Shown: piece after piece, positions 1 to 31,895 of the stretch
How positions within the stretch are numbered: position 1 is the first letter of the stretch
Layout: each line of letters starts with the position of its first letter
Assembly: GCA_008632985.1 (NCBI GenBank)
Contig: QPGO01000253.1
Coordinates: 62,001 to 93,895 of the forward strand
DNA length: 31,895 bases
From: Psammoneis japonica
Lineage: Eukaryota
Direction: 5' to 3'
Notes under the pieces: model-generated
What the model saw: the letters and a program-made list of their open reading frames with translations, nothing else
What the model was told of the DNA's origin: nothing
The model's database searches: none
Made by a program: the position numbers and the translations under genes

Positions 1-1514
1 GACAACTGCGAAACGATGCTGTTTCGATTGCTTTGGTGCAGGACAATTTGCCTGAATTGCAGATCACCCACCAGTGCTCCCTGGCAAACCCAGCATCAAT
101 CATTTGAAAACTTACAGAAAAAAGCAGTGGGTTCGTCGGGAGACTGCTGATCATCTTGGGTTCGGATGGGCGGGTGCTGATCACCTCAAACAGCTTCAAC
201 CATGCGATCAGCACGAAATGGAGTGCACAAAGTTGGTGACTCTTGATGTGACGGTGCCAAAATCTGATGGCATGACAGCGACGGAAAAGGTGACCGTTGA
301 CCCTTTTTTGGCCCCGGCACCTCTCAGTGCTTTGAGTTTCAACACGCCAACAAAGGGCACTCGCGCGTCCAGCGGAAATGGCACAGAACATGAAATCCTG
401 CGGCACGTGTTGAACATGAGCAAACGGGAAGCTTCATTGACGCCGCAAATGCAAATTGCTCTTGCAAAGGAGCAGCTTCTGAATGGTGTGGACCGTGACA
501 AAGAGAACAAACAACCAGAAGAGTTGGGGTGTGGGGACGAGATGAATTCGAAGGAGTCCAAGCCACCCAAAATCAATCTGTTCGATTTGAGTCCGAGTGA
601 AGTCAAACGACGGACGGGATTTGAAGACTTGAAGCACCTGTTGAGCTGCAGCATTGTTTGTTGTGAGGGCAACTTGGACAAGATGGTAGAGACTGCAACG
701 TGCTTGACATTCTTGGAGGAATTGATTCTCATGTACGAGCACACGCACGGTCGGACTCGCTCGCATTGGGAAGACATTGAAAAGGATTGGGGTGCCAACT
801 GCAGGACCTTGCAAAAGGTGATTGATCACCGTCTGCAAAAAGAACTGGAGTGTCGGGAGAGATGGCCGATGCATGCCTCCTGTGCCGAAGACGCCAAGTT
901 TCGTGATGAGAGATGGAATCAGCACTTCAGTCCGGTCGATGGACATCGTGTCATCATGCATGACGGAACGAATGTCCCGCTTCTTGATCCAAGCTCAGGC
1001 GATTTAAATCGAGCGCTTCACAATGTCCACCATGACATGTGTTGTGCAAAGGCTGGTGCAGCTGTGCAGCTGTGCAATTGGATTCTCGGCTTGCCGCTGG
1101 TGACGGGACACTGCGACGATGATCAGCTAATCAGATTCAGCAAGATGCTCGAATTGCAAAAGAACTTTGCAGACAACGACCCAGTTTCAGCTGGCGGCCA
1201 TGGCAAAAATGCAGCAATTGAAGAATTTCTGAACATGTTCGACAAAGGTCATCACATGCTTCTGGAAGCAAAAAGGCTGGGTCAACGTTGCTTGCAACCG
1301 ACAAAGTCGATTCTTTGATGGGCGGTGATGCAACCCTTGTTCAGCATCTGTGGCAGTGGTTGGATCAGGCAATGAGCGTGGCGTGAAGCGTTGCAAACTG
1401 TCTTGGATGCTCAAGCGAGGAATGCAAGACAAGCTGTGCAACGTTGATCGGCTTTGTGATGTTTGGGAGGCATGGAGCTTCCGCGTCAATTTCATGCACG
1501 AAGGCTTCCAGTGA
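1..1514 (+). pseudogene. Degenerate PIF/Harbinger/ISL2EU-like DDE transposase (DDE_Tnp_4-like), 5' end outside the window
   Basis: ORF 74-1318 has RVIMHDGTNVP, CCAKAG..VQLCNW..L..G..DD and FLNMFDKGH (canonical DKGY). After a frameshift near 1320 the C-terminus continues as SGNERGVKRCK..DVWEAWSFRVNFMH to TGA at 1512-1514. Tyr positions read as His/Cys; only about 6 TpA in 1.6 kb. Confidence 0.7.
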
Positions 1515-2896
1515 AGCACGACATTCTGGTGCATGCGATCAGATGCTGCGCTCCACTTGCAGTGTTTTGTGTGGGGAACGAACAACAACAAAGTCTCTAA
1601 CCCAGTTCTCTGTGTGACCCACCGCCTGCTCACTCTAAGAGGGCCCCGGTGTCAGCACCCACCGTACGGCAAACTGAGTCTGTTGTCACTGTCAGTGCCG
1701 TGGTGGTGCTGCACCGGTGCTCACCGTATGTCCGTCGCCATCAGATTTGTGACGTAGGCATTCAGTACAAAGAAGACGTAACATGTACGATAATACCAGG
1801 CCAACGTGCTTTTTACGGGGCCACCAGAAAATGGAAATACAATCGCTCCATGCTTCGTGCGTGCTTCATAACCTTACCGCCCGCCTGTGCGTGCTTCGTT
1901 GGTGCGTAGTCGTCGGTCGTACGATGTTTGTACGGTGTACGGTACCGTATTGTAGCAAGGATTTATAAGTCTGTCAGGATGTACAAGCTGCGTGGAACGC
2001 GTGTTGCCATGCGTGGTCAACAGCCTCTAAGTAATCTTGACGGTGCGAACTCCGCCGTTAAAGTATATAAATTTATTTTTATTTTATATATGTATTTGTA
2101 AAGCAAGAGACCGGACACGCGACGACTCCTCATTTTTTCAAGGGATCGCGCATCATTCATCAGAGCACACACACCATGATAATCGGAGCGCCGCTTATTA
2201 GACTATTGACGATCCTTTCAACAGTACCAACGCTATCTACTAGTCTTTACCTCCATATAGAAACAGATTATGTTGCTTTTTCGAAGGCAAGCGGCCAATT
2301 GTAAGGTGAAAAAAGGATTTTGTATTGACACCACGGTTCGAGACTCATTATCGCTCTCTGTCGCAATCGAATTATATTGTGCTTTTGTTTCGGCATCTCA
2401 CTCATTTTCTTTGACATGTTCGTCTTTATAACTCATATAGAGAAGCTGTTGAGCAACGTATCACCCCTACGGACGAACAATATCTCATACTTTCGTGTCG
2501 GTGTCGACACCATTTCTTTTCAACTCATGTTCTTCCTTATATCGGAACGGGGCTGTGGTGTGTCCTACGCTCTCTTTTGGACTGAACCAAGCAAGCTACA
2601 GTTGATAATTTCACGAATAATGACAATTATAATGTGCAATGGGTTGGATATTGACGTCCATGACCTTGCCGAGTGCCGGTTAGTAGTACTCCCTCGTTCG
2701 GGGACCGAAAACTGGGGTAAATCTTGGTGGCGTGGAGACTCTGCGATTGGAATGCGAGCGAGCGGGCTGGAATCTCGTGCAGTTTACTTCTGAAGGATGT
2801 GTACAATAAGGTATGTTTACATTTAAAGCAGTATTGATGCATCATGCATTTACAGTACCGGCATGACAAACAAACTAACAATATCATTCTCCATCT

Positions 2897-3148
2897 CTAT
2901 CTTTCCCATCTAGGTGGTGTCTTATTTTTGATTCTTGGCCAGTGATGAGGGGCAATGCATAAAATTTTAGTGCTTCTCTCGGGCTTCAAGTAATGGACAA
3001 TGCTTTGGACGAGACGCTTGCATCGTGTGTTTTGCGTCACGCGTATCCTTGCCAGCGGGCGACCCCAAAGTGGATCATTAGCGTGAATCAGCGCTTGTCG
3101 AAACACATGACAATTTGGCGAACTACAGCAGCATACATCATCACTCAT
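2897..3148 (-). pseudogene. Possible THAP-like N-terminal remnant of the P-element transposase
   Basis: MSDDVCCCSSPNC...PLW...ILCIAPHHWP resembles a THAP C2CH layout and lies near one end of the P-like element. No catalytic domain is recognisable downstream. Confidence 0.4.
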
Positions 3149-3260
3149 GGTTACAACAATCAATCAGTCATTGGGTTGATTGGCAATCGGCGGCAGATTT
3201 TAGAGCTACCATATTTGAAATTCCATTTCGTCTCTGTCTTCATCCACGTACGCCACCGCA

Positions 3261-3342
3261 CCATCACATTTCGTGCCGTCTGTTATCCCCCCTCCATCAC
3301 GTTTCGTGTGCCGTCTGTTTTCTCCCCTCCATCACGTTTCGT
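3261..3342. repeat. Short tandem repeat, 33-35 bp unit, about 2.4 copies, inside the P-like element
   Basis: CCATCAC(A/G)TTTCGT(GT)GCCGTCTGTT...CCCCT starts at 3261 and 3294, with a partial copy at 3329. Confidence 0.85.
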
Positions 3343-3543
3343 CTTCGAGGTATCTATGATATTTGTGCATGGTTATTTATAAATGATAAGTTCGTCCCGT
3401 CAGAAGCCCTACGTAGACTGCCGTAAAACGCAGTACAAATTTTAACGGTGTTCGTACCACGCATGGCAACAGGCTCGTGCGTAGATTTGTACCGGAGCTT
3501 GTACATCCTGACAGACTTATAAATCCTTGATTGTAGTTACTGA

Positions 3544-4268
3544 GACTCTGTCCAAACACTATCATAGGTATGATCATACCCACGTCACGCAGGCTTTTAT
3601 GATGACGTCATAGGTCATACCCGTAATGTTCTGTCCAAACACATTCGTACGTATGATAGTACCTCATAGACATTAATCGAATGATTCAAACTTACAGTAC
3701 GCGAAGCAACACCAGATACAACATGAATGAACCAGCGATAACAACACCACGAGAGCGACATGACCATGACGACGAAAACGCAACCATAAGGCGACAATAA
3801 GCCATACAAAGGACACCTATTGATAAAAAAATCATGCTTATGTATAACTTATGGCTAAATCAGTTGTCCGTAAGAGAGTATGACATGAATTTATTTTAAG
3901 AAACTGTTTGGCAAAATGGTTGTGTCAGAAGAGTCCAGAATGGCACACAAAGCCCCCCAAAGACAACAAGCGGCTCATGCATGGTCTTATGTGGTTGCCT
4001 CATATAATATACAGCCACATGCGCTTTGGACGTATCAAAAAACGATGCATATCGGTTGTTTTCGTGTTTCGTCGGTGGGGTATGATGTTGGGGTATGATG
4101 TTTCCGAGGAAGTCTGTTCTCGCGAGAACAAACATCCTCATGAAAGTTGGTATGGCCTAAAATTACGTCATGCATAGGGCTAATAACCACTAATTTTTTC
4201 GAAGAGGCTCATTTTAGGCGCTATGACGTCAGGTATGATCATACGTATGATAGTGTTTGGACAGGGTC
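3544..4268. mobile_element. Tourist-like (PIF/Harbinger) MITE, 725 bp
   Basis: About 37-bp TIR GAC(T/C)CTGTCCAAACACTATCATA(G/C)GTATGATCATACC at 3544-3580 and 4232-4268; 3-bp TSD TGA (3541-3543 and 4269-4271); internal partial TIR copy at 3631-3642; no credible ORF. Confidence 0.85.
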
Positions 4269-4596
4269 TGAAGTAGTAGGGCCTACATATTATGAATATA
4301 TACTGCTGTCAATCTCCAGTCGTGGAAATGACAGTTTTGAGGATAAAGTTTAATATTTAGGATTTTACAGATTGATTACATCAGTGCTTTATGATATAAT
4401 TGAAAGATTGGACATTTCATTGAAATTGAAGGTTAAATAAAAACTGCACAGATAACGGGGTTCACGCCAATTTTTTTTGCAAAAGTGTCTAATTTACGAC
4501 GACAAGTACTGCCAAGCACAGGTGTCGAACTTCTGTGGATCTTAGTTCTTAGTTGAGTGCATGCGTTGTGTGTCTTTTCTCAGTCCACCATGATCA

Positions 4597-14983: not shown

Positions 14984-17310
14984 ATGGATCCTGTCGACGT
15001 TGAAATACGAAACAAATTCCAGGATTACACCTTCGAACAAGAAACACAAGCAGACACGCAACACGACGAGCTGGGATCGCAACTTCCTGAAAGCATCTCA
15101 TGGCGAGTCAGCAACAGCTGGTCACTCATTTCAGGGGACAGACTAGAGAAAGTGGTAAGCGTTCTCGTCCTCTCCTGATGTTGCATCTTTTGTATTTCAC
15201 CATTTCTATTGTTCTCTCTACTCTAGGGAGTTGATTGCTTTCTCAGAATGTTCGACGAGCACCCTGAACTTCTTGCTCTGTTTCGTTTTGGTGGCGAATC
15301 CATCGCTCCCAATAAGCAAGGAATACGCGATTTACCCGCAACTCTAAAGCACCATGCTCTCGTTGTAATGCAGACAATCGGTCAGTGTGCCTCAGGGCTC
15401 ACAAAGTTGGAAGTACTTGTACCGAAACTTAGAGCCATTGGCAACGTGCACGAGTCTGCAGGAGTTCAACAGCACCATTATGATATTCTTTTCAGGCACC
15501 TCATGGAAGCCATTGCGGCGGAGCTAGGGCCAACGGAATTTGATGGAGAGACTAGACAAGGTAAGCGCCTTTCATCATCTCGGAGGAGGAGCGCCAACTA
15601 GTTCCCTTGAGCTTGGTCGTTCATTCATCTGTTTTCTTCCGTCTTCTCATAGCTTGGGAACTCGCTTTCAGATCAATCACGAGAATCATTGATCGTCCTA
15701 AGGACGTACTTCAGATGGAACCACTCGAAGGATATGGGGCACTCAATGCTGCCGCGTGCATGTATTTCACATTCTATGCACCATTTCGGATGGCTGGATT
15801 TACAGCAAGAAACGAAATCATGGAAGCGACATTCAACATCCTCACAACTGCAGCATCTTTTGTGCTGGTTCTTGATCTAGGAAGTCATTGGATTGTGGAT
15901 CAGCTCAGACGTCGGGAATTTAATGATATCTCGAAATGTGGCATCCTGCGTAGGAATATCTACCGATTTCTCTTCCCTGTGAAGTTCAGGGTAAGACGAT
16001 TTGTTCGGGGATTGGGGATGCAAAGATGGGCGAACTGGCGTGAAATGGACTTTATAGTACTCATGAGCTTTCCGTTGCAGTACGGTACGAATCTTATTTT
16101 CGGGCGCGAACCGCGGGCTGCGGGGGTTCATTGGACCTATACGCTCGGATTGCTGCGGATGGCAGCTGGAGCTCGAGTACTTCACTTTGTCAGGTGTGCC
16201 GAGAACAACTTGATGCTTCGACGTCGCGTTGAGCGCAGTGAACTGATGATGATTCGTGTTGTAAAGCTCTTGATCACAATGTTGGCTTTCATTCATTTTT
16301 CAGCCTGCCTATGGTGTATCGTGGCACGAGTTGAGCTTGGTCCGTCTACCGTCGAACCCAAAGCATCCTCATTTTTCCCAAATCCTGACCTTTTGATGGG
16401 TGGAACTGGAGTTTTGAATTCTTATATGCATGCCATTCATTGGGCTTGGGTGAATCTTGCCGGAATTGGAGAATGTGATTCCGTTCCTCAATCGTCGCTC
16501 GAATGCTTCATCATTCTCATCATCCACTTTTGCGGTGCGACTTTGTACACAGTCATGACGGGAAATGTCGTTGCTATTCTGGAGGAAATAACAGCAGAGC
16601 AGAATGAAACATCAACCGATCTCGCTGATTTGGGTCAGTATATGCATCGATGCCATGTCCCTGAGCACGCACAAAGACGAATTATGCAGGGGTATATGAT
16701 GCGTCAAGTTACGAGTGGTTCCTCGTCCGAAGATAAGGAATCGTTTGGAAGCGCACCCATTGCGCCCGCAATGGTCGCTCGGCTTCCAGCATACTTGCGT
16801 CAGGAGCTCAATTGTTACAGCCGCGCTGAGGCTATCAAGAACCGTGACCCTGCGTTTGGACAATGTAGCAACGAGTTTCTCTTTGCGATTGTTGGGGCAC
16901 TGAAATCCAAAACGGTACTTCTTCCTGGAGATTACTTTGTTAAAGAATCAGAGAACATACCCCAGCAAGTGATTCTGGTCGAACAAGGTACTATTGAGGT
17001 AATTCGAGATCGTAAATGCGTTCGACTTTTACAACGAGGAGACATCATCGGGAAAAGATGGTTGCTGAGCACAGGTGAGGTGGAGGAGTCACTCAGCGAG
17101 AAGACATCCTTACGAGCCGAAACAGCCTGCACCTTAGTTACTGGGCTTGGTTGCATAAAATCAGTCCGAGAGTTGAGTGAGCGATACCCAAAGGATTTTG
17201 CTTTGCTTCAATTCAATCGGCAACGCATTCTCGAGATACGAGAGAGCAGCTTAAAACGAAGGAACTCTCTTGAACTCTCGATCTCATCGCTGATGATCGA
17301 GGAAAGCTAA
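14984..17310 (+). CDS. Globin domain fused to a 6TM CNBD-family (KCNH/HCN/CNG-like) ion channel
   Basis: Introns 15155-15226 and 15561-15652 join the three ORFs in frame. Globin: A-helix SW, MFDEHPELLALF (CD1 Phe), LKHHA (E7), IGNVH (F8), H-helix AW. Channel: S1-S4, S5 IHFSACLW, pore helix YMHAIHWAWVNLAGIGECD, S6 ..GNV, C-linker (LPAYLRQEL) and a CNBD-like fold (PGDY, GTIEV, GDIIG). Confidence 0.88.
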
Positions 17311-17717: not shown

Positions 17718-20126
17718 CTACGGCTCAACTCCCTTCAATGAATTGAGAACATCCAATCCGTCCGTGTCGAAAAGCTTTGAAGCGTTGCTCTTGCTAACGG
17801 TTTCAAGCCATCCCTTTTTCTGTTTCTTGCTCGGATTTTCTTCCGGTTCTGATTCCATCACCTTTACTTGATCGTCTTCGAGAACACCAGGGTTCGCACC
17901 AGCTGTGTGGTCACAAGGGTATTGAACGATGAGACGAACACAGCCAAACCTTTCCCCAACAAGCTTGGGCACTACTTCCTCCCAGCGCCGCTTCAGACCT
18001 TGCTTAGACGTTATCTTAGTTGCGAGCTTCGGATCCGTATCTCGATTTTGATGGTATAAAAGGCTGGAGTGACCGATCTCAAAGCTTCCATTAGATTGAC
18101 ATTCTTTCTGTATTTGGCTTGTGATATGACCGCACGTAGTCTATGTACGAATCATTCCACATTATGAACATGAGATCTGGTCCAATTGCCGTGTCTGGGT
18201 AGCAGAATGGTGGCACTTGGCCCTCAAAAGTACAAGTTGTTGCAGCTTCGATCCAATGAATTGTCGCACTAGCGTCCTTGCATGACACAGCAAGCATTCC
18301 GTAGGCCGACCTATGGGGCACCGTATGCTTTTTCAAGACATCCCCTTTGTCGCCAAGCTGTTCTTGGAGTATTTCTGGAAGTCTCTTTTGAATCGCTGGC
18401 AGCATTACCTTCTCGAATAATCCTTCACCTAAGCCACCATCCTCTTGCGCTTTCATGTTGTCGATGGCCGTTGCTGGAGTGAGAAAAAATTGATGCCAGC
18501 TTGAATCACAATTGGCTCGTAGAGAACCGCCATGTTACTTTCGCAACTAAGAGCAGCTAAGCCAACCTCAACAAGCTCTGCGTGGTGCTTAGAAATGTAC
18601 ACCGGCTGTCCTCCAACGGCAAACTTGAAAGCGGCATTCTCCAGCACACTGGCAACCTGATGCCCTCCCTTCTCGACTGCGTGCTTAAAGGCACTGTACG
18701 CTGTGCCCTCAGGCGGGTCGAATGATTCTCGTCTGTCCCCACCCATGCCATCGAGATTCTTAATCGTTTCCCCGGTGTACTTGTCAATGTAGCGATCTAA
18801 AGCCTCTATCAGCGCGCACCCCTGAGCCGAGAATGATCCTCTCGTCCCGGTGTAGTTGTCTCTTTTCTCTCGTACCAAGTATAGCTCCAAAAAGGATGCG
18901 GACCACCGTGGGCAACCTCGAAGCCACTTGGAGATGTGACCAATCACGCTAGCAATTGAAGCTTTCCCTATTTCTTCAGGATCATCCAAGTCCAAGTCAA
19001 TGAAAGTGAGAAGATATTCTTGGACAGCGTTTTGGCATCGTGGATGTTGAAAGCCTTGAAGACAGTCGTGCTGTTCTCCGATAGCGTATGTGGCCGTTTT
19101 GCCATGACCGAATACGATGCTTCCCTGATCTCATCAATCGACATTCCTGTACCGGCTGCCAGTGGAAAGCCTGTATCTGAATCCAGAGTTACCGTCAGCA
19201 TGTTCGTCAATGCCTTGAGCACAGCAGAAAAGGCATGTCGCTTTTCACCCCCGTTCGAACTAAGGAAAAAATCATTTAGTTTTTTCAGAAGCTCTTGTGC
19301 CTCGTCTACCACCATCGTAGTCCAGGGCAGCACTTTTTCTCCGTTACGATTGTCAAGGGCAACTGTGACACTGACATCGTTTGGCCTCGTAAAGGCGTGA
19401 ATAACACATTTACCACAGACAAGACTAAAAAGGTCTTTTTCAATGCCTCCTTCGGGAACAGTTGCATCAAGAGCCAGTCGTACGGCGTGAGTTCTTGTTT
19501 CTTTTTGATTCAGCTGCTTGTTAATCGCATCGAAAACGGCAATTCGTCCAGCACACAATCTTGATGTGTCGATCCATGTTTCGCTGGTTCTCGTCGCTTC
19601 GGTTTCGTTGTCGCTGCAGTTGTTACTTTTCATCATCTTGGGAGTCACCTCCATCCAATTCACCCAGAAAATTATGTCCATGAAACTCCTGAAACGAACC
19701 CATCAGTCTCGATAGATCCTTCGACCCAGGGTCATTCGTTGTCTTAGCCACAAAGTACAAGCCAAAGTTGTGGCTGAGGCATTCGTAGACGGCGCGTGTT
19801 TTCCCCGCTCCTGAAGTGCCATACAATCCACTACAAATGTCCTTTGTTCCGTCAATGAACTGTGAACCTCTGTGCATTTGTGCGTGTCATTCTGGAGATC
19901 ATGCAACAACAGTGAAGGAATGGGAAGCTTCGTGCAGGAAGGATCCTGAGGAATGGTGCTGTGCTGCATTGGAGATCAGCCAATGGACCCTTCCCTGTGG
20001 ATGCATAAATGATTCCAAGCAGAAAGATTCATGTGGATGCTCATTGAAGTGCTCATCTACAAGATCAGAGCACAGTTGAGCAACAGTGCGCGCATCGGCA
20101 TCGGTTTCTGCATTCGCAGTTGCCAT
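17718..20126 (-). pseudogene. Crinkler/RHS-like P-loop NTPase + restriction-endonuclease-fold gene, disrupted
   Basis: Walker A GTSGAGKT, Walker B MVVDEAQ, AGTG, then PDTAIGPDL and SQAK (nuclease-like). Two in-frame TGA at about 19887-19901 and frameshifts near 19650, 18990, 18460 and 18110. Likely start MATANAE at 20126. Confidence 0.68.
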
Positions 20127-20428
20127 TGTTGTGGTTTTTGGAGAGAGAGCTGTTGTTGTTTTTGTTGTCGCTAAGAACAACCGAACGCCCACACCCACAC
20201 CTTCCATCTCCACGATTGCGACGATGCAGGTTCACCAGGCACAGCAAAAGTCTGTTGGCAAGCAACGCTTGCAAAATCGTGCAGTTGTGCTCGAGACATC
20301 ATGACATCTGGTCTACGTTGCCGGTCCGGATCTCTGCGTCCGTGCTCTTGCGCTGTCTGCGGCAGTTTTCTGCAGGCTTTTGTTCAACCTTATTTTCAAT
20401 TTGCCACCACATGCCAGACAATGTGACG

Positions 20429-21180
20429 ATGAGCAATTTGCGGGCAAGAGTTGTGCTGAGTGCCTTTGTGAGCTCAATCGTTTTGTTGTTGCAACAGAAG
20501 GCCTTTGTTGGTGGAGAAACCGACGAATGCAAGCCCCAAAATGCGGCAGTCATGACCCTTGTGACAACGAGCGATTGCGTCAAGGGCGCAAAAGTGTTGG
20601 CTCACTCTTTGGACAAAGTGAGCGCCTCTGGCGACCGAGTTTTGCTTTGCGCATTTCCCGAAGACGACCCTCATTTAGATCTCACACAAGAGCGTGTGCT
20701 CGACCTCCGTGATGCCCGCTGGACCAAGACTCGGAGACTCGCGTCAAATGACGGAACGCTTTCCATGTGCAAAGCATCAAAGGAGCAGCAGCGCACATTT
20801 GAACAGAGTCCAAAAGAGCTGGCTGGGTCAGCAAGATGCTGGGGAATGAGCAGCAAATTTGCAGTCTGGATGCCAGCTGAATGTGATGTCATCGTCTGTG
20901 TTGACGTGGACAGCTTGGTGCTTGACAATTTTGACTTTGTGTGCGATGTGATGAATGGGGCGAGTGGCGCCACCCTTTTGGCTCAGGGAACGCCATGTTG
21001 CTGGGAGGATCCACCTGACTGTGGCGCATTTTGTGGTGCTTTCATGGTTGTCAAACCCATGCCCCACATTCACAAATGCTCTCATGACCTTTCAGCTGAA
21101 AATTTCTTGGCCAAGGGGAACTGCCGCTGCTGAATCAAGTTTGCAAATCATGGCAGCCACTCCCTCGACACACACCGGCG
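20429..21180 (+). pseudogene. Truncated, hypermutated duplicate of the GT8 glycosyltransferase
   Basis: Aligns to 21682-22437. Every Tyr is replaced by Cys/His, YIDAD becomes CVDVD, there is a 1-nt deletion near 21115, and it is cut at the duplication junction. Confidence 0.95.
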
Positions 21181-21349
21181 GCTGTGCTGCATTGGAGATC
21201 AGCCAACAGACCCTTCCCCGTGGATGCATTGATGATTCCAAGCAGAAAGATTCATGTGGATGCTCTTTGAAGTGCTCATCTACGAGATCAGAGCACAGTT
21301 GAGCAACAGTGCGCGCATCGGTGTCGGTTTCTGTATTCGTAGTTGCCAT
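21181..21349 (-). pseudogene. Second, truncated copy of the Crinkler-like gene 5' end
   Basis: MATTNTETDTDARTVAQLCSDLVDEHFKEHPHESFCLES matches 19958-20126. Confidence 0.8.
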
Positions 21350-21681
21350 TGTTGCAGTTTTTGGAGAGAGAACTGTTGTTGTTTTTGTTGTTGTCGACAA
21401 GAATAACCGAGTGACGCCCACACCACACCTTCCGTCTCCACGATTTCAGATTGCGACGATGCAGGTTCACCAGGCGCAGCATTAGTCTGTTGGCGAGCAA
21501 CGCTTGCAAAATAATCGTACAGTTGTGTTCGAGATATGATAACTACGTCGCCGGTCCGGATCTCTGCGTGCTCTATGCTCTATCGCGCTTACATCGCGCT
21601 GTCTGCTGTCTGCGGCAGTTTTCCGCAGGCTTTTTTCTTTTTCATTTTCAATTTGCCACCATTCCAGACAAAAATGCGACG

Positions 21682-22728
21682 ATGAGCAATTTGCGGGTAA
21701 GAGTTGTGCTGAGTGCCTTTATAAGCTTAATCGTTTTGCTGTCATTGCAACAGAAGGCCTTTGTTGGTGGAGAAACCGACGAATACAAGCCCCAAAATAC
21801 GGCAGTCGTGACCCTTGTAACAACGAGCGACTACGTCAAGGGTGCAAAAGTGTTGGCTTACTCTTTAGACAAAGTGAACGCCACTGGTGACCGAGTTTTG
21901 CTTTACGTGCTTCCCGAAGACGACCCTCGTTCAGATCTTACACAAGAACATATACTCGACCTCCGTGATGCCGGCTGGACCAAGACTCGGAGACTCACGT
22001 CAAAAGACGGAACGCTTTCCGTTTGCAAAGTATCAGAGGAGCAACAGCAGATAATCGAACAGAATCCAAATGAACTAGCTGGGTTGGCAAGATACTGGGG
22101 AACGTGCAGCAAATTTGCGGTCTGGACGCTAACTGAATATGATGTCGTCGTCTATATTGACGCGGACAGCTTGGTGCTTAATAATTTTGACTTTGTGTAC
22201 GATATGATGAATGAGATGAGCGGTGCCACCCTTTTGGCTCAGGGAACGCCAGGTTGCTGGGAAGATCCGCCTGACTGTGACACATTTTATGGTGCTTTCA
22301 TGGTTATCAAACCCATGTCCCACATTCACAAATACCTTCATGACCTTTCAGCTGAAAATTTCTTGGCCGAGGGCGAACTACCTTTGCTGAATCAAGTTTA
22401 CAAATCATGGCAGCCACTCCCCCGATACACATTGGTGGCTCAAACCGAAACCGCACGACCACGTCCGAATGATGACCCAAACCAAAAAGTGGATTGGTCG
22501 CGTGTCGTAGTCTACGACTTTTCCGGCATGCCTCAAACCAAACCGTGGGTAACTTACGCGTTGCAGAAGGAACAGGGAAACAAGTATGCGCACGGTTATT
22601 TTGGAAGTTTGCCCGCCGGATCTCCCAACGTTGATATTTACATGGAACCGCAGTGGATATGGAATGAATACTACGATGCTATCCTACAAGAAAAGAGTGC
22701 CAGAGGCAGCACGGAACCCGACCTGTGA
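21682..22728 (+). CDS. GT8-family (glycogenin-like) glycosyltransferase
   Basis: N-terminal signal/anchor, AVVTLVTTSDYVKGAKVLAYSL, SKFAVWTLTEYDVVVYIDADSLVL (DxD), LLNQVY and KPW; intronless ORF. Confidence 0.9.
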   Translation: MSNLRVRVVLSAFISLIVLLSLQQKAFVGGETDEYKPQNTAVVTLVTTSDYVKGAKVLAYSLDKVNATGDRVLLYVLPEDDPRSDLTQEHILDLRDAGWTKTRRLTSKDGTLSVCKVSEEQQQIIEQNPNELAGLARYWGTCSKFAVWTLTEYDVVVYIDADSLVLNNFDFVYDMMNEMSGATLLAQGTPGCWEDPPDCDTFYGAFMVIKPMSHIHKYLHDLSAENFLAEGELPLLNQVYKSWQPLPRYTLVAQTETARPRPNDDPNQKVDWSRVVVYDFSGMPQTKPWVTYALQKEQGNKYAHGYFGSLPAGSPNVDIYMEPQWIWNEYYDAILQEKSARGSTEPDL

Positions 22729-22848
22729 CAAGGAATATCAATCTATACTAGGTACAATGAGTTACGTGTTTGTTGTATGGCCCGGCGACAGGTGTACCAC
22801 GGTGAGGAGATAAGCGCCTTGCCAGGGTGTAAATACAACACGGATTCT

Positions 22849-23628
22849 TCAATCCTCGTGCTCATGCTGCGGCTCAACGTACGTTCCGCACATCCAATGC
22901 AACATAGCAGGGGGTTCCATTATCCGCTTCAGCGGCCATCCTCGTACTTCGGCCAAGATGGGATAGACGTACTCTAAGAAGTAATAAATGTGTCCAACAA
23001 TAACCCCAATCACATCGATAGTCACGTTATTTCCAAGCAAGATGGAAAAGGTAAGCATGACCCATGGTAAGTAGGGTGCATTGAAGGTGAAGAAACCCAG
23101 AAAGCTCATTCGCACGTGTTCATTACGCCGTCCCCAGACGTAAACCATCATGAACGTCAGAGCCGACCCTAGGAAATGCACTCCAGTGTAAGAAGCCACA
23201 AGAGCCATGATTGTTACTCCAAACAAGAGCATAAGGACGAAATTAGCTGTTCTGCCTCGAAAGTCACCCTCCTCCAACAATCGGCAATAGCGAACCTATC
23301 AGGGGGGAATCAAGTCAATCGTGAGTCTCCAAACATAACACGCTTTCGCATCAGCGTCTGTGTGTGCACGACTTACCAAAAAGTACATATGGAAAAGAAA
23401 GTCCATCGAAAAGACCCCAAAGAAGAGATAGGACGTTATCAATCGCCAAACCTGACCTTCCGAGAATATCAGTCTCCAGTTGAAATAGAGCGAAAAGGGA
23501 CTGACAATGTCGATTGCGCACAAGGTTGTTGTGAGAAATGCCCCCGTAAAGTACAGTCGAGACACGGGCGGAATTTCCTTGTACCATGACATGAAATCCA
23601 CTCCACCGGCAGCACCTCCGAGATCCAT
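22849..23628 (-). CDS. DER1: Derlin (Der1-like ERAD component, derlin-2/3 type)
   Basis: IPPVSRLY, QVWRLITSYLFFG, FLFHMYFL|VRYCRLLEEGDFRGR, VYVWGRRN, APYLPW and GHIYYFL; intron 23296-23376. Confidence 0.95.
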
Positions 23629-24219
23629 AATGTTGTTGTTTTTATTCTACGACGTGTCTTATGAGTGAATCTGAAATCGTCTGAGCGCAACTTCGCGTTC
23701 TTTGATTGGAGTGACTTCGCGTTTGTGTATCCTTCAAATTCTTGTTCTTCAAGGTATCCAAGCAGACTTTTGTCCAGTAAGCTCTCTTATTCTTCAGTTT
23801 ACGTGGCGGGTGTGTTTTGCTTTAGCGATTCTCAGTCTGTTTCAATGCAATGCGATGCTTTTATCGTATCATGGGCGATGACTGTTCCAGGTGATGATGA
23901 CAACGCAACGGCGATCGATCGAGAATTTCGTTCCGGTTTGATACCGCAGATTTCTATAAGTATTGTACATACGAATAGTCTACGTCAAACCTCTGGTACA
24001 CATTTCATTGATGTCAAATAGTAACGAATAAAATCATTTGATATGAAAAGATTCAGTCATGCATTATAAAAATATAAAAGAAGTAATCAGTCATTTATGT
24101 CATTATTTTTAATAAAAACGGGATCGATCGCTTGCAGATTGCTGTGCTACACGGGAATGTGACCACAAAAAAAAAATCGAGAGCAACTCGGAAGTGTATC
24201 ATAAAATGTTGGCAACGAG

Positions 24220-26709: not shown

Positions 26710-26942
26710 TCTTTACTTTGCCAAAGAGTTGTTGATTACTTTTTGTGGTTGCTTTCGCGCTGTCGTATGATGTGAATGCTTCGAAGTCATCGCGCACCTC
26801 AATCACGACTTGGGACGAATGCACGTTTCGCGAGTCGTGAATGCTGAATGCTGGCAGATACAGCAGCAGGGAAGCGAGTCGTCGAAGCTCGCGTGTACGC
26901 GGAGCTCCGAGTGCCTTCCTGTCAACTGTCTTAACGTGCTGA

Positions 26943-27759
26943 CTGGATGCGTCCGGGCGATCCAGGAAACTTCGAAGACTTCGAAAGATTCCATATTCCA
27001 TGACATTTCTGTAAATTATTCTACGTGCAGAGCTCGTAGGTTGTTGGTACTTAATAAATAAGGGGCAATAGATAAAAGTTCGAACAAATATGTTGTGTGT
27101 TCGAAGCTTTCGAATATTGTTCGAAGTGTTCGAATTTTTGTCGAAAACATATTGCCCTCCAAAGATTTTGATTTATGTCACCTATTGTTCGAACTTTTCA
27201 TATTGCCCTTTTGGTCACTTCGAACTTATTCGAACAAAGTTCGAACTTATTCGAACAAGTTCGAAGTGTTCGAACAAGTTGAATAGTAGATCTCGTACTG
27301 CCTGTACGCGTTACTTGTCGCTTCGATTGTACGTACCGTATCTCATCATCTCATTGATAGAAGAGAGCACAAAACAACAACGTGAGATATCATACCGTAT
27401 CGCGCGTGTACCTACTAGTCTACCAGCAGTACACTACATCATTCGGCTACGGGATGTCATCGTGACATCATCATTCGTCTCCCCTGCCGTTACTGTACTA
27501 TTTTTATTTAAGAAAAAAACTTCGAAAGTGTTCGAAGTACTTCGAAGTGTTCGAAGTATTCGAACACTTCGAACAACTTCGAACACTTCGAACTTTCTTT
27601 GGGGCAGTATAAAGGGCAATAGAGAAAGAAATTTTACAATGTTCGAAGCTTTTGTCCATCCTACACGAGGTCCACGTAGAGATATATAAATAGGAATTAG
27701 GAATCTCTTAAATATTTTTCGAAACTTCGAAGTTTCCTGGATCGCCCCGCTCCATCCAG
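26943..27759. mobile_element. Foldback/MITE-like inverted-repeat element with TTCGAA arrays
   Basis: Perfect 23-bp inverted repeat GGGCGATCCAGGAAACTTCGAAG (26955-26977 and 27725-27747), extending imperfectly outward. About 25 TTCGAA copies lie in two arms around a roughly 200-bp core. No TSD found. Confidence 0.6.
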
Positions 27760-27819
27760 ACCAACACCTCGAGCAGAATACAAGTGGAGAGCATCTACTG
27801 ACGAGCAGTGACGAGTGCT

Positions 27820-30800
27820 CAGTCAAAAGTCTTTCACAAAACTGCCAGTGACCAAATTATGAGCCACCTGGACTGAATCTGCTGAGTGCAACAAACAGAG
27901 GTTCATCCTCCGCACACACTTGTGCTGGAGACCAGCACAAGTTTCAGGGTCAACCACTTTCACAACAGTCATCCAAGTGCTGCTGAACCAATGCATGGTT
28001 GGTCCAACATCCATGCAATGCCTGTGATCCTCAAAGCAGATTCCGGCCGATGGAAGTGCAGACACATTGGAGAATTTGGGTCGGTCGACAGATGGCCCAT
28101 TGCTCTCCCTCTCATTCACAGATTCCAGCAACCAAAAAAGAAACTGCAAATGAGAAAGCTTGCACAATTGGCACAAGTTCAGAGCAAAGCCCCTGCACAT
28201 CTTGACCGAGCCACAACACACACAACAAACAAAGGAAGCAATGCTCCCAAAAGGCCACCACCCTTGGACCTTCAACTGGTTGTTCTGAAAGAGTTCTCGA
28301 GTCAAAGGCTTCACAAGAAAATTGGTGAGCTGATCAGCCAATTCCATCTTGAATGCATCAAACTTGTCACAATGTGACCAGAGCCAGCACCACTTGATGA
28401 GAAAATGCTTGGCGCGATTCGTGATGCGGTGGTTGGCAGCCAGGCAGCAACCACCTTGATTGTCTTCAAACACACAAGCACAAACAGAAGTTTTGAGATC
28501 TTGGGGAATGTCCAAGGTGGAGACAATTTCAAGGAGCATGTTCTTCAAAGGTGGGAGTGTTCAAAGTGCACAGGAGGCGGCTTGGTGCTCAGCTTCAAAA
28601 GTGTGGAGCATGCAATGGCCAACTGGAGCTGCAATTTCCACACCAAAAGACACTCATTGAGAGCAATGAAGCATCTGGTGCAAGACCTGACCAAATTTAG
28701 ATCAGAGCCCTTTTTTCAGCAATGGAGACCAGCAAAAACAGCATCGTCAACCCAGCACAAGTCAAGATCCAAGTGACCGGTTGGAGACAGTGGCATCCCC
28801 TGATCACGTGTCCTCTCAAGGTGTCAGACAAGAGTCTTGATGGCAGCAGCATGCAACTGCTTTGGGTTGGAATTGAAGCGCGCAACCTGGCTGATGGAAA
28901 AGGAGGCATCAGGGCGGGTGTCAGCAGACAAGTGCAAGAGCATCCCAACGATGGAGGGGCAGCTCCAATCCTCCTGCATGGGGTCCTGTTGACATCACTG
29001 CCAAGTGCTTGAGATGCTGCAGGGAGCAAGTTTGGTTTGCAGTCTGTCACACTGGCAGCAGCCAAAATCTTGTCAAGAGTCAACCCCTTTTGAGACAACT
29101 TGACAGCACCATCATCTCGCCTTTTGAACTTGATGCCCAGAAACTTGGCAAAACTGCCCTCTTTTGTCTGCTCAAATCCTTTCTTGCACAGTTGAGACAT
29201 CACTCAGTTGATGGTGGACTCCTGTGCTGCACTGACACCACAATTGTTGACACGCAGGCAGACCATGCAATCTTTGTGGAGCAGAAGGCATTGGCTGCAC
29301 TTGCTTTGGATGAAACCCAAATCCAAGAAGGCCTGCAGGCAATGCTCATGCCACAACTTTGGAGCTGAAGAAAGTCCACAGTGGCTCTTGACATGCTTGA
29401 GACAGGTCTTGGGTCCTTTTGCAGAGTGGAAACCATGTGCTGGGAGATGGGTCCAAACTGGCTCTTCCTTGGGAAGCACCACCTGAATGAATGCAGACTG
29501 GAAATCAGCAGATGCAGTGTGCCATCCGAGGATTAGACTCAACACCAGAAATTCCAAAACTGCACTCCAAGCAACAACATGAGCACGGGCATCAAATGGG
29601 CTCCCTTCCTGCAAATTGCTGCAACAGCAGTGCCAAGCCTTGTGTTTCTTGATCTCACCCAATGGCAATCTGCCGGGAAGCATCTTGGCTCAAGCATTGG
29701 AGACTTGTGCTTTGACCCACATTCCCTGATGGACAAGAGCAGCAATCTCAAACTGTTGGCTGTCTTCAACCATTTCTCACAATCAGGAGGGCACATGGCC
29801 TCATCCCACAACAGCTCATCAGCATCCTTGATCTTGCACACTGACACCTTGTGCGCGGCAGGTGCAGTCATGGATGTGTTGCAACAACCGCGATCAAACT
29901 TGCAGGCACAATGAAAATCAACAAAGTGAGACAAGCATCCATGTCCCTGAGAACCATCACACCCAAGGCAATCAGGTGTCAGGTGCAGCACAATTCTGGG
30001 TGGAATGCCAAACTGGAGCAGGAGAGCTGCAGTGCCTCATTGTTGGCAAGGATGCACAAGTCTCTCAGGATGCACAAGCTCTGGTGCAAGACCATGCAAG
30101 AGGCAGCCTGTTGCCATGTGTGGTTTGGCCACCATCAAATTTTGCACTGGATTTTACCAAGGCTTGCGTCAGGCTTCTGATGGGATGATGAACTCATCAT
30201 TTAAAATTGACAACAAGATGGCAACAACTTGTGCTTCCAAAATGTTAAAAAAAAAATGAACAGAAGAGAGACAGTCATTGAACTCAAAAATGAAACCTGC
30301 CACCGACGGAATGAGGCTCAGTGCAACACTTGTCCATTGCAATCCAATGACCATTTGTCAGCCACCGTGTGCAGCAATGATGTTTGTTGATGAACAACAA
30401 TTGGTCCCCAGTGCAATGTTGAGCATCTTCAATCTGTGTTGTGCGCCAGAACTTGCTTTTGCTTTTGACTCACTCATGTTGAAAAGTGAGAACATTTGTG
30501 TGCTTGAACAGCAGAGTTTGCAACATCAAAATTGCTCATGGACTCATCACAGTGCACGTGGCAATGTGCGTTCCATGCAGCTTGCACATCCTGATGCATC
30601 TTTGTTTGTTGGACTGTGTGGGTTTGCACACATGTGCGCACTGCATGTGGAAAACATGCACAGAATTGCTGCTGAGTGAATCGACGTGCGGTGGATTTTC
30701 ACAGGTGCACAATCCACCAGGTCTGCAGGGAAGACAAACAGATGTGGCAATGGCAATCTTTTGTGCTGCAAAGTCATTGTCAACAAAAAATGCATGAAAA

Positions 30801-31000
30801 TTGTGTGGACCAGCACAAAAATTGACCGCTTTGCCAAATGGCTGTGTCTTGTTGTCTCCATGACTGAAATGAAAAGAACATGATCATGATTGACAATCAT
30901 GATCACATTGTGACATTTGTCCATCTCAAAGAGAAGGATGTCCACACCCTTCTTGGGCTTCCTCTGGATGTTCCTGACAGAAAATGAAGGCAAATGGCAA
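27820..31000 (-). mobile_element. Heavily degenerate Ty1/Copia LTR retrotransposon (RT-RNaseH, PPT, probable 3' LTR)
   Basis: ADFQSAFIQ, KSHCGLSSAPKLW (canonical KSLYGLxxAP), LRVNN (YVDD), FLGIKF, LSQKGL, VFEDNQG, RAKHFLIKW and NFLVKPL. Purine tract GAGAGGGAGAG at about 28103-28113 on the minus strand. Outer boundaries are approximate. Confidence 0.85.
30047..30604 (+). mobile_element. 558-bp P-family element nested in Copia, related to 1956-3529, TpA-erased
   Basis: Left end CAAGGATGCACAAGTCTCTCAGGATGCACAAGCT and about 150 bp align to the reverse complement of 3380-3529. The right end ..GCGTTCCATGCAGCTTGCACATCCTGA-TGCATCTTTG aligns to the reverse complement of 1956-2012 with a small deletion. 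Flanks ATTGTTGG and TTTGTTGG form an 8-bp TSD with 1 mismatch. Confidence 0.85.
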
Positions 31001-31895
31001 GAATTCAAACAATGACTCCTCACTGCTGTCTAAATGGCAGATGAGTCTCCGCTCAGAGACCGTCACAGGAGCCGAAAGACGTGCAAGTCGGCACAATCGG
31101 GCCACTGTTGTCATTCTTGTGAGCCTTGTGGCTCGAAAGCAAACTGCATCGCACGTGAACGCGCAGAACTAAAGCACACAAAACTGTGCACGGCAAACTA
31201 AACAGCGTGCGATGCTTCGCGCGCACCCAAATCCTGTTCAAATCCTGTCACTCCCCAGTTTGCTTGAGGAGCCACAGAAACAGATTCGACTTCAGATGGA
31301 ATGAAGTTCCAGAACATGAGGGGGCGGAGAAGGTCCCAGATTTGGGAGTGACCCCAATGCTTGCTGAGAATGTCAGCAGGGTTGCGGGAGCCTTCGATGA
31401 AGTGGAACTCAAGGCAACCAGAGGCAATTGCCTCACGCACATGGTGGAACGACAGTGCGGTGTGTCGCTTGTGTAACTTGGAGTGCGGGATGGTGGCACT
31501 GTCTACAACCGACTTGTTGTCACCGAACATGTGACCAATGTTGCGGATCGGGACGCCAAGGTGGCGCAGGGTGATGCGCAGGTCGATGATCTGCTCAACA
31601 CAAGTCCTTGCGGCAACAAATTCAGACCCGCAGGTCGCAGTCTCCACGGTGGCTTGTTTCTTGGAGAACCAATCAGCCGGGAATTTGTTGAGGAAGTGGA
31701 GCATTCCCATGACAGAGCGTCCGGTGAGCATGCAATGGTGCAAGTTTGCATCGACGCAGTGGGTGGCAGTGACGAACTTGCCAAGGGGCGGTGGAGCGTC
31801 CTTCGGGATCATCTCTTCTGCTTCACCATGCACGGAATGCATCCATTCATAGGCCGGAGCAGGGAGATCCGAACAGTCGGGCTCTTCCGTACGAA
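31000..31895 (-). mobile_element. Second Copia (diatom CoDi-like): RNase H, PPT and start of the 3' LTR; continues beyond the window
   Basis: HCVDANLHHCMLTGRSV..DWFSKKQATVETATCGSEFVAA..FGDNKSVV..KRH.ALSFH.VREAIA..NPADILSK. On the minus strand, GGGGAG is followed directly by TGACA at 31250. The far LTR end was not determined. Confidence 0.9.

Follow-up and report, generated by a model that had tools for sequence, protein, structure and literature searches.

The window analyzed here is a 31,895-nt stretch of DNA from the diatom Psammoneis japonica (assembly GCA_008632985.1, contig QPGO01000253.1, positions 62,001–93,895, forward strand). Its features are listed in window coordinates, with TA and CpG contents given as observed/expected ratios (o/e).

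1..1597, no strand: TA-free domain 1, truncated at the window start; contains 5 TpA (o/e 0.05); Harbinger-type DNA transposon relic.
56..1315, forward: PIF/Harbinger-type transposase relic, open frame of 420 codons; 493 homologs, DDE_Tnp_4 in 5 of 10 scanned.
1956..3529, no strand: young TIR element, unerased; 37-bp TIRs 97% alike, target-site duplication ATTGTAG; TA o/e 0.81, CpG o/e 1.16.
3543..4269, no strand: second TIR-bounded element, unerased; TIRs at 3543–3587 and 4224–4269, 91% alike over 46 bp; TA o/e 0.88, CpG o/e 1.05.
19626..20126, reverse: P-loop NTPase gene X, 5' part; homologs of ~800 aa, AAA_22 in 2 of 15.
19833..21280, no strand: TA-free domain 2, unit A plus flanks; 6 TpA in 1448 bp, o/e 0.07.
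19958..21183, forward: tandem unit A, the erased copy; 5' end of the divergent gene X, intergenic promoter region and truncated GT8 copy.
20429..21133, forward: GT8 pseudogene, cut at the duplication boundary; 1-bp and 3-bp deletions.
21181..22440, forward: tandem unit B, the unmutated copy; 45 TpA.
21682..22728, forward: intact gene for a GT8 glycosyltransferase of 348 aa; Pfam PF01501 scores 26.2 bits (cut-off 24.3).
26943..27759, no strand: TIR-bounded 817-bp element, unerased, at the left edge of domain 3; TA o/e 0.78, CpG o/e 1.61.
27859..31895, no strand: TA-free domain 3, truncated at the window end; 4037 bp with 12 TpA (o/e 0.05); Copia relics.
28700..29689, reverse: remnants of a second Copia reverse transcriptase; RVT_2 at 26.2 and 14.6 bits, below the Pfam cut-off of 31.6.
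30047..30206, reverse: erased old copy of the end of the 1956–3529 TIR element family, within domain 3.
31201..31893, reverse: Copia polyprotein, C-terminal part, open over 231 codons, within domain 3.

TA o/e is 0.05–0.07 in the three domains compared to 0.62 in the other 24.8 kb, a deficit with Poisson p values of 1e-16 to 3e-51. The domain boundaries are sharp to <100 bp, and GC rises with erasure (0.50 versus about 0.46). An earlier note on this DNA had placed the pattern at 19840–22437; it is wider, with two further TA-free domains in the same window. Nearly every TA step in dead transposons and a redundant gene copy of this diatom genome is rewritten to TG or CA.

The tandem units were aligned to compare the erased and unmutated copies. 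The alignment has 1272 columns, 1214 of them ungapped, and the units are identical at 1085 of these (89.4%). Unit A carries TG or CA at 38 of the 45 TpA sites of unit B (25 TG and 13 CA), two are kept, and the remaining five are other changes or gaps. Both strands are hit, as the earlier note had claimed, and its count for the GT8 coding part (32 of 32 TpA changed, 23 to TG and 9 to CA) was reproduced exactly over unit B 21698–22426. The single, new TpA that it described is the one TA kept in the coding part of unit A, at 20676, where unit B has CA. About 95% of TA is gone from unit A, whereas CpG decay is far weaker (20 of the 70 CpG of unit B are TG or CA, 29%) and transversions are rare (20/1214, 1.6%). 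The excess over CpG decay was also part of the original reading.

The direction of the change was determined from protein homologs. The intact GT8 has 42 homologs, the named ones from diatoms, and seven Tyr columns are conserved in 31–41 of them. At these columns the codons are TAY in the intact copy and TGY or CAY in the duplicate; therefore, TA was lost in the duplicate. The pseudogene encodes Cys or His at all seven, and the invariant residues C142, L150, R83 and S84 are gone as well. The same polarity is found in the two transposon relics. All seven strongly conserved Tyr that differ in the Copia relic are His or Cys, and among the 11 columns of its C-terminal part where Tyr is commonest, eight are His or Cys, two Phe and one Tyr. 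The Harbinger-type transposase relic has His at five conserved Tyr, including two adjacent columns that are Tyr in 107 and 105 homologs. Outgroup Tyr columns in three unrelated proteins thus agree with the polarity first proposed. The opposite scenario, in which RIP-like C>T mutation at CpA/TpG struck unit B and unit A is the unmutated state, has next to no chance of being right. Read from unit A, 25 of 135 TG and 13 of 111 CA are TA in unit B, which resembles light RIP, but at each informative Tyr column unit B, and never unit A, has the residue common to 31–41 of the 42 homologs. The ancestor would also need ~1.2 kb without any TA. Because the outgroup columns show TA loss, RIP on the intact copy is refuted.

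The erased DNA has lost its coding capacity. All Tyr codons are changed, along with many Ile, Leu and Val codons. The removal of Tyr codons without added stops had been noted before; TAA and TAG stops are removed too, and therefore the dead DNA has long open frames. Gene X has two in-frame TGA in its 5' part, both within the TA-free part. The outcome of TA erasure for the affected DNA is permanent inactivation.

The sequence context of the changes was measured in the unit A versus B comparison with both strands folded. A>G occurred at 40 of 86 strand-sites after T, compared to 14/190 after A, 16/193 after C and 4/158 after G; TA versus all other contexts gives an odds ratio of 13 (Fisher test, p 1.7e-19). 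The 3' base ranks TAC (15/23), TAT (14/28), TAA (7/22) and TAG (4/13), a ranking that does not reach significance when TA sites are taken by themselves (chi-square p 0.087). Outside TA, an A with C as its 3' neighbor changed more often (17/127 compared to 17/414, p 5e-4). The TA steps left in erased DNA give a second view: 17 of 33 lie in YTAR, the context with no TAY on either strand, where 5.5 are expected (p 4.6e-6). In short, the mutated A follows T and preferably precedes a pyrimidine, and this enzyme-like specificity is seen twice, independently, in the unit comparison and in the surviving TAs.

A>G on one strand is indistinguishable from T>C on the other, and a thymine-centered chemistry fits the sequence equally well. 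The same targeted process could act on the thymine of TpA (a JBP/TET-type dioxygenase might, for example, oxidize it to 5-hydroxymethyl- or 5-formyluracil) or methylate its adenine at N6, with mispairing or decay producing T>C or A>G. This chemistry is a minority possibility that deserves some weight. TpA is palindromic, all counts fit, and the context rule in thymine terms is RTA. Dinoflagellates carry 5-hydroxymethyluracil preferentially at TpA and TpC. However, the literature matches listed are on dinoflagellates by title, and none of them reports 5-hydroxymethyluracil in diatoms by title or abstract. Near-saturation, at a rate ~10x that of CpG decay in the same DNA, is also hard to reach by occasional mispairing.

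The earlier note had called the process repeat-targeted and the reverse of RIP. All three domains do lie on duplicated or transposon-derived DNA, but the homology sensing that this implies is not supported. Unit A alone is mutated, and unit B has Tyr at 12 of 12 conserved columns. Domain 2 extends past the repeat at both ends, by 125 bp (left) and 97 bp (right). This overshoot into unique flanks is based on two short TA-free stretches only, with chances of zero TA at the background rate of 0.004 and 0.019; of the 1098 TA gaps in the rest of the window, 15 are at least 97 bp and one is at least 125 bp. The three young TIR-bounded elements adjoining the domains are unerased, with TA o/e of 0.78–0.88. 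The 817-bp element is multicopy: its word depth in read run X1 is 500–1000 versus about 57 (about 10–17x single-copy), and the contigs skip it. With one tandem copy alone hit and young multicopy elements spared, homology sensing is unsupported. The old family member at 30047–30206, aligned with the normal copy at 3372–3529, has TG at seven, CA at three and TA at two of 15 TpA. Overall, TA loss on both strands beyond CpG decay and the removal of Tyr and stop codons stand from the original interpretation, while homology sensing and confinement to one region do not.

The assembly was compared with contigs built from reads. X1 contigs with a word depth of about 50–70 cover 30 of 30 bins, and k-mer contigs at ~60x agree with the assembly. 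One 1761-base piece within domain 3 has six differences; three differences are listed within domain 2, and none creates TA. Places with G>A or C>T total 53 across the 12.9 kb compared, against roughly 200 TpA missing from domains 2 and 3 (211 expected at background, 18 observed). One contig of run X2 spans 21661–22747, the intact GT8. X1 comes from the same sample and study as the likely assembly source, and the type of its library is unrecorded, so this read check is not fully independent. An artefact, in which a modified base in repeats is misread and polishing fails there, had been raised as a concern and would suit the fact that all TA-free domains are repeat-related. We regard it as highly implausible. 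The read-derived contigs carry the erased sites, and units A and B also differ at CpG, by transversions and by indels. Moreover, if every polymerase read a modified base as G, one round of replication would make it a real G.

Erased copies are also found in other sequence data. Two of the 67 metagenome Copia loci are almost free of TA: L020 (3 in 2766 bp) and L041 (5 in 1025 bp). They come from two assemblies and are 94% alike, and L041 is only 72% alike to the window. In L020, 27 of 29 conserved Tyr columns hold His, Cys or Phe. The Tyr>His/Cys signature is present in 4 of 120 Copia homolog proteins in the database. The TA-free copies in two other assemblies and these four proteins likewise speak against an artefact. 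A third locus, L054, is strongly CpG-depleted over 651–2200 (CpG o/e 0.07–0.23), yet its TA is normal. Therefore, either methylated-transposon status alone brings no erasure or the species of that contig does not have the process.

A passive context-dependent bias of mutation or repair, such as GC-biased mismatch repair visible only in unconstrained heterochromatic DNA, would need no dedicated system. The erased DNA is all non-functional and the background TA o/e of the window is already 0.62. In E. coli, biased very-short-patch repair is thought to deplete CTAG towards CCAG/CTGG, and there too TA in a defined context drifts to CA or TG. Such a bias is nevertheless improbable here. Losses of TA, CpG decay and transversions differ greatly within the same 1.2 kb, the domain edges are sharp, other intergenic and intronic DNA in the window has normal TA, and L054 is a decayed Copia with normal TA. 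Very-short-patch repair is a slow genome-wide bacterial bias, whereas erasure here is near-complete and domain-confined.

CpG decay by 5-methylcytosine deamination also removes a palindromic dinucleotide domain-wide to TG/CA in silenced elements, and it co-occurs with TA erasure in domain 3 (CpG o/e 0.38). It affects another dinucleotide and another base, and the losses in unit A differ. The two processes can be told apart, because L054 is strongly depleted in CpG and its TA is normal.

Erasure is at the DNA level and not the RNA level because a DNA transposon relic is erased and because the tandem duplicate is erased including intergenic DNA and the start of a divergent gene. Hyper-editing of transposon dsRNA by an ADAR-like enzyme, followed by reverse transcription and integration, is therefore already contradicted by domains 1 and 2, and we give it very little credence. 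Domain 3 is a retroelement, the A>G changes are clustered, and the 5' neighbor order (T far above A and C, then G) resembles the ADAR preference for U over G. However, the duplicate retains its intergenic DNA and divergent gene head in place, the old TIR copy was erased in place, the TA-free stretch is longer than the repeat unit, and the 3' preference is for a pyrimidine and not G. ADAR hyper-editing and A-to-G hypermutated retroelements are known in animals (see PMC4866542). That route needs dsRNA and a retrocopy, and the TA specificity here is far stricter.

The pattern runs in the direction opposite to fungal RIP. Like RIP in Neurospora and other ascomycetes, it is heritable, dinucleotide-specific transition hypermutation of both strands that saturates in sharp-edged blocks, hits transposons and duplicated sequence and abolishes coding potential, with some spill-over into flanks. 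RIP is described as converting C:G to T:A mostly at CpA (PMC2621366). It makes DNA AT-rich, creates TpA and stops, and mutates both copies, whereas here A:T becomes G:C, TpA is destroyed, stops are removed, one copy is spared, and the host is a diatom and not a fungus. The diatom DNMT4 is described as related to RID and as having no known function (PMC9998398). A literature search found no published description of TpA-erasing hypermutation, in line with the earlier note, whose author knew of no described mechanism.

We lean towards DNA-level A:T>G:C hypermutation of TA in silenced domains, probably by an adenine deaminase recruited by chromatin state or small RNA. Within discrete domains, 5'-TA-3' becomes TG or CA through this transition on either strand, with a preference for a pyrimidine after the target A (TAC > TAT > TAA and TAG) and weaker action at other A-C steps. 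The affected DNA is that which is silenced (the DNA transposon relic, the Copia relics and the redundant truncated tandem gene copy), and neighboring single-copy genes and the functional GT8 copy are spared. In the likeliest chemistry, an enzyme would deaminate adenine in DNA to hypoxanthine, and replication would read this as G. Such an enzyme's preference, T-A-(C), would resemble that of tRNA adenosine deaminases, and it would be guided to a domain by chromatin state or a small RNA rather than by pairing between homologous copies. The sequence data themselves show the pattern with its polarity, domains and context preference, and its occurrence both in contigs built from reads and in other assemblies. 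The dedicated enzyme, attack on A rather than T, the choice of domains and the timing are the parts that we infer.

We know of no natural adenine deaminase that acts on DNA. All natural substrates of TadA and ADAT2-ADAT3 place U33 directly 5' of the target A, and the bacterial enzyme TadA recognizes U-A-C-G, which compares with a T-A-Y motif here that is strongest for TAC. In nature these deaminases work on tRNA, and to our knowledge TadA-type activity on DNA comes only from laboratory evolution (adenine base editors). Stramenopile-specific deaminase-SAM-Tudor proteins are described as members of the cytidine-deaminase-like clade and as predicted small-RNA editors (Iyer et al. 2011, PMC3239186). 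As lineage-restricted nucleic-acid deaminases with chromatin or RNP reader domains in a group that includes diatoms, they are a candidate effector, linked to the TA pattern by taxonomy alone.

A sliding TpA scan, together with a list of TpA positions, identified three stretches of the window that are almost free of TA.

1–1597, block 1, 5 TpA observed and 97.6 expected
19833–21280, block 2, 6 TpA observed and 87.3 expected
27859–31895, block 3, 12 TpA observed and 254.6 expected

The observed/expected ratio (o/e) of TpA is 0.05–0.07 in the blocks compared to 0.62 in the other 24.8 kb (Poisson p between 1e-16 and 3e-51). The block edges are sharp to less than 100 bp, and inside them TG and CA rise to 1.5–1.8, the GC dinucleotide to 1.2, and the G+C content to 0.50. 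Blocks 1 and 3 continue past the ends of the window. The earlier note placed the erasure, the conversion of TpA to TG or CA, at 19840–22437. Erasure is found there, but it is not confined to that interval, since the window holds two more TA-free blocks. Single-copy genes between the blocks have ordinary TpA.

4597–6932, receptor gene with a periplasmic-binding domain and 7tm_3, normal TpA
11800–13182, RCC1-repeat protein gene, normal TpA
15607–17310, cyclic-nucleotide-binding ion channel gene, normal TpA

Block 2 contains the erased copy (unit A) of a tandem duplication whose other copy (unit B) is unmutated.

19958–21183, tandem unit A, repeat unit of 1.26 kb
21181–22440, tandem unit B, repeat unit of 1.26 kb
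21682–22728, intact GT8 glycosyltransferase gene of 348 codons, its full length reached from unit B only

Each unit consists of the first ~170 bp of gene X (a P-loop NTPase gene on the minus strand, divergent from the GT8 gene), the intergenic region, and GT8 codons 1–252. The units are 89.4% identical over 1214 ungapped columns, 20 of which are transversions. The gene at 21682–22728 belongs to GT8 by Pfam (PF01501, 26.2 bits; gathering threshold 24.3), and its protein has 42 homologs at 46–63% identity with named sources in Seminavis, Fragilaria, and marine transcriptomes. The window is nuclear sequence from a diatom or a near relative of diatoms. The GT8 copy in unit A is truncated, carries 1-bp and 3-bp deletions, and gave no PF01501 match in the Pfam search. 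A read-derived contig of sequencing run X1 (depth 40.8) links position 19988 straight to 21211, and the 1222 bases absent from it are exactly one repeat unit. The joint may reflect an allele that lacks the duplication, some third arrangement, or an assembly graph that collapsed where the two units begin alike.

The count of 32 TpA sites changed out of 32 in the coding part of unit B, 23 to TG and 9 to CA in unit A, proved exact. Over the whole unit, the 45 TpA of B correspond in A to 25 TG, 13 CA, and 2 retained TpA, with the remainder gapped or otherwise changed. When the strands were folded, A>G changes were found at 40/86 strand-sites after T (47%), 16/193 after C (8.3%), 14/190 after A (7.4%), and 4/158 after G (2.5%). 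The odds ratio for A>G after T versus elsewhere (34/541) is 13 (p = 1.7e-19). The CpG decay reported for the duplicate is also present, and it is weaker, affecting 20/70 CpG in unit A (29%) compared to a TpA loss of ~95%. TG products outnumber CA products by 25:13 across the unit (p = 0.07) and by 23:9 within its coding part (p = 0.02), a skew in the duplicate that is at least partly explained by TAC codons; no strand bias was consistent across the three blocks. Five adjacent double changes between A and B (CA to TG or TG to CA) could be re-erasure of new TAs and could equally be ordinary changes in B.

Seen from unit A, 25/135 TG and 13/111 CA are TA in B. This view mimics light RIP acting on B, so the direction of change needed testing. 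The 42 GT8 homologs define 12 columns with Tyr in at least 30 of them, and B shares the Tyr at every one. At the seven that fall within the duplicated part, A carries six Cys and one His. Copy A also loses the invariant or near-invariant residues C142, L150, R83, and S84. The conserved Tyr residues are kept in B and replaced by Cys or His in A; therefore, TA was lost in A. The Tyr-based polarity of the earlier note is borne out at 7/7 duplicated columns, and the outgroups side with TA rather than with TG/CA as the ancestral state. RIP on copy B is refuted by the same comparison, in which outgroup residues match B and not A. RIP converts C:G to T:A, mostly at CpA, and creates TpA, whereas the outgroups show the reverse here, TA to TG or CA.

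The bases that flank the target were compared on the hit strand. Erasure affected 15/23 TAC, 14/28 TAT, 7/22 TAA, and 4/13 TAG sites (heterogeneity p = 0.087). At non-TpA sites, A before C was mutated at 17/127 positions compared to 17/414 otherwise (p = 5e-4). The TpA that survive in erased DNA of the window and of three metagenome loci encoding Copia relatives (L020, L041, and L054) provide a check that is independent of the A-versus-B comparison. YTAR, the context with TAY on neither strand, accounts for 17 of the 33 survivors (5.5 expected, p = 4.6e-6), and ATAT or ATAC/GTAT accounts for none (7.4 expected). Based on the 3' preferences between A and B and the contexts of the surviving TpA, the erasure motif would be T-A-Y or, in thymine terms, R-T-A.

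The two outer blocks contain transposon relics.

56–1315, block 1, 420-codon open frame, PIF/Harbinger-type relic with 493 homologs at E ≤ 1e-3
28700–29689, block 3, RVT_2 fragments, window matches below the Pfam cut-off
30047–30206, block 3, 160-bp end copy of an old TIR element with a young copy at 1956–3529
31201–31893, minus strand, block 3, Copia C-terminal polyprotein frame of 231 codons matching 1337 proteins at E ≤ 1e-3

The block 1 frame itself has no Pfam match, and DDE_Tnp_4 (PF13359) was found over the aligned part in 5 of the 10 long homologs scanned. Five conserved Tyr are His in this frame, two of them in neighbouring columns where 107 and 105 homologs have Tyr. Three of the Harbinger-type matches of at least 200 residues have less than 1% Tyr. 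The minus-strand frame in block 3 is homologous to Ty1/Copia, with PF07727 in nearly all of the 120 homologs listed from the 1337 (57–74% identity). Of the 11 columns where Tyr is commonest, 8 are His or Cys in this frame, 2 are Phe, and 1 is Tyr. The old TIR copy has TG at 7 of the 15 TpA sites of the young copy, CA at 3, and an unchanged TpA at 2. Four independent comparisons in the window thus agree on direction and on products. Only 12 TA are left in the heavily CpG-decayed block 3, which by inference hints at continuing or repeated erasure. A tblastx comparison of block 1 and block 3 (27751–31250) with 67 metagenome loci gave no match. The summed X1 word depth over 30610–31895 is 78,000–233,000 compared to ~57 for single-copy sequence, and 3241 contigs fall within 19000–31895. 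This depth indicates a repeat family of very high abundance across the Copia 3' end; ribosomal RNA was excluded as its source, as no Rfam family is found in the window. Run X3 is tiny (contigs of 58–518 nt), covers 31037–31895 only, and would fit a small-RNA-like library.

The erased state is supported by reads. X1 contigs, with a word depth of ~50–70 on single-copy parts, cover 30/30 bins of 19000–31895. Within block 3, the X1 pieces include 1761 bases with 6 differences, and another piece of 703 bases has 9. Blocks 2 and 3 are missing ~200 TpA (211 expected at background, 18 observed). The 53 places with G>A or C>T over 12.9 kb are too few to restore them. None of the block 2 differences listed (20260 A>G, 20623 C>T, and 21125 C>T) gives rise to a TA; another 105 differences over the whole stretch lie outside that list. 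X1 and the likely source of the assembly share one sample, and the library type of X1 is unrecorded; agreement with X1 therefore excludes an error of polishing but not all artefacts at the read level. Run X2, whose depth is very uneven, resembles a transcript library but is not recorded as RNA. It has no cover on unit A and is uninformative either way on expression of that unit.

Erased DNA is also found in other data sets. Among the 67 metagenome loci encoding Copia relatives, L020 has 3 TpA in 2766 bp and L041 has 5 TpA in 1025 bp. The two loci, from two assemblies, share 94% identity, and L041 and the window share only 72%. At 29 conserved Tyr columns, L020 has His at 13, Cys at 8, and Phe at 6 (27/29). 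The first 618 bp of L054 are TA-free, and normal TpA density follows near the start of the L020 homology (~651). Positions 1–650 of L054 are either older erased DNA beneath a TA-normal Copia insertion or part of a chimeric contig. Between L054 and L020, 0/66 TA are kept, at 73.5% identity and with many transversions, a divergence too great for clean polarity. The Tyr-to-His/Cys signature was present in full or in part in 4/120 Copia homologs from public protein sets (P0078, P0060, P0081, and P0149). Five public entries (P0078, P0060, P0165, P0256, and P0291) are TA-free relics called as long proteins almost without Tyr (e.g. 0/558 residues). Such Tyr-free entries are spurious, and they also offer a cheap route to erased DNA in protein databases.

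TpA erasure and CpG decay are distinct processes, since unit A lost ~95% of its TpA and 29% of its CpG, and L054 is CpG-poor (o/e 0.07–0.23 over 651–2200) with normal TpA.

All three TA-free blocks are transposon relics or a redundant duplicate. Three TIR-bounded elements adjoin the blocks and are probably young non-autonomous DNA transposons.

1956–3529, young TIR element, AT-rich and CpG-rich, 37-bp TIRs that are 97% alike, intact 7-bp target-site duplication ATTGTAG
3543–4269, TIR-bounded element, AT-rich and CpG-rich
26943–27759, TIR-bounded element, AT-rich and CpG-rich, ~10–17 times single-copy depth in X1

X1 contigs omit the element at 26943–27759 (joints 26921>27774 and 26952>27747), as expected for empty sites. 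The three elements are unerased, with TA o/e of 0.78–0.88 and CpG o/e of 1.05–1.61. Unit B retains its 45 TpA at background o/e; in RIP, both copies are mutated. Block 2 exceeds unit A by 125 and 97 bp, where the chance of zero TA is 0.004 and 0.019. A Tyr conserved in 8/9 gene X homologs is Cys here ~55 bp outside block 2, in an N-terminal region that is poorly conserved; another gene X Cys is common to both units. The intact unit B, the overshoot, and the spared TIR elements argue against RIP-like homology sensing. The earlier description of erasure as repeat-targeted agrees with what the blocks contain, and it is not supported by unit B, the three young elements, or the overshoot. Erasure would be either episodic, sex being rare in diatoms, or tied to a chromatin state that young insertions have yet to acquire. 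Selection must have removed lineages in which the working GT8 copy was hit.

What is seen is an A:T-to-G:C change at TpA that affects both strands, is close to saturated, is limited to bounded stretches of dead DNA, and has a reproducible flanking preference. The proposal first made from the tandem duplicate, a directed mutator that erases TpA in dead and duplicated DNA, is well supported, and the erasure is more extensive than that proposal had it. A dedicated enzyme would be responsible, and its simplest candidate would be an adenine deaminase that acts on DNA, given that hypoxanthine pairs with C. The sequence would be explained equally well by thymine-centred chemistry or by methylated adenine that decays. 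The erased DNA spans a DNA transposon, retroelements, a TIR element fragment, and a gene duplicated in place. ADAR hyper-editing followed by retrocopying needs an RNA intermediate, whereas a Harbinger-type DNA relic and an in-place unit with intergenic DNA are erased here, which argues for action on DNA and against copied-back edited RNA. ADARs prefer U or A over G on the 5' side of the target and G on the 3' side; here the 5' order is T, then C, A, and G, and the 3' preference is C or T. tRNA adenosine deaminases have U before the target A in every natural substrate, and the loop recognized by bacterial TadA is UACG. The erased sites resemble TadA/ADAT-like substrates in having the target A after T(U). 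As to a TadA-like 3' C, TAC is the site most often hit (15/23), but heterogeneity among TA sites gives p = 0.087. RIP is the nearest known system in logic. It differs in chemistry, in direction, in lineage, and in what happens to the second copy.

Tentatively, and with less than even confidence, we propose a heritable diatom genome defence that would deaminate adenine in DNA at 5'-TAY-3' on both strands of silenced transposons and redundant gene copies. As the counterpart of RIP on the A side, it would amount to a natural editor of adenine in DNA, guided by chromatin or small RNA and not by homology pairing, and still active in natural populations. No natural DNA-editing enzyme that turns A:T into G:C at a defined motif is known to us. 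Stramenopile-specific deaminase-SAM-Tudor proteins are among those listed by Iyer et al. (PMC3239186), and Hoguin et al. describe many diatoms as having DNMT4, a RID-related protein with no function assigned (PMC9998398). Neither has an evidential tie to TpA erasure here. Full-text literature searches, outside subscription journals and supplements, found no published TpA erasure in any organism.

If real, this would give eukaryotes a second, chemically distinct kind of hypermutation directed at selfish and duplicated DNA, located outside fungi and opposite to RIP in compositional direction. It would imply a natural A:T-to-G:C editing enzyme of interest for base-editing work. Diatom annotation would be affected, as erased DNA without TAA or TAG gives long spurious open frames, and Tyr-free "proteins" from it are already in public protein sets. 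The signature of TA o/e near zero with TG/CA excess could map silenced domains and date transposon invasions in ecologically major algae. It would also bear on the survival or death of diatom gene duplicates.

Gene X (18000–20126, minus strand) has homologs of ~800 aa, named from Attheya and Seminavis, with AAA_22 in 2/15. It contains two in-frame TGA within the TA-free part, and introns or decay change its frame farther downstream. Over 19000–19817 in this gene, an X2 contig matches with 17 mismatches and 13 gaps, so the expressed copy seems to be a paralog. Another X2 contig (depth 310) omits 81 bases at 23293–23375 with CT..AC ends, which correspond to a GT..AG intron of a minus-strand gene.
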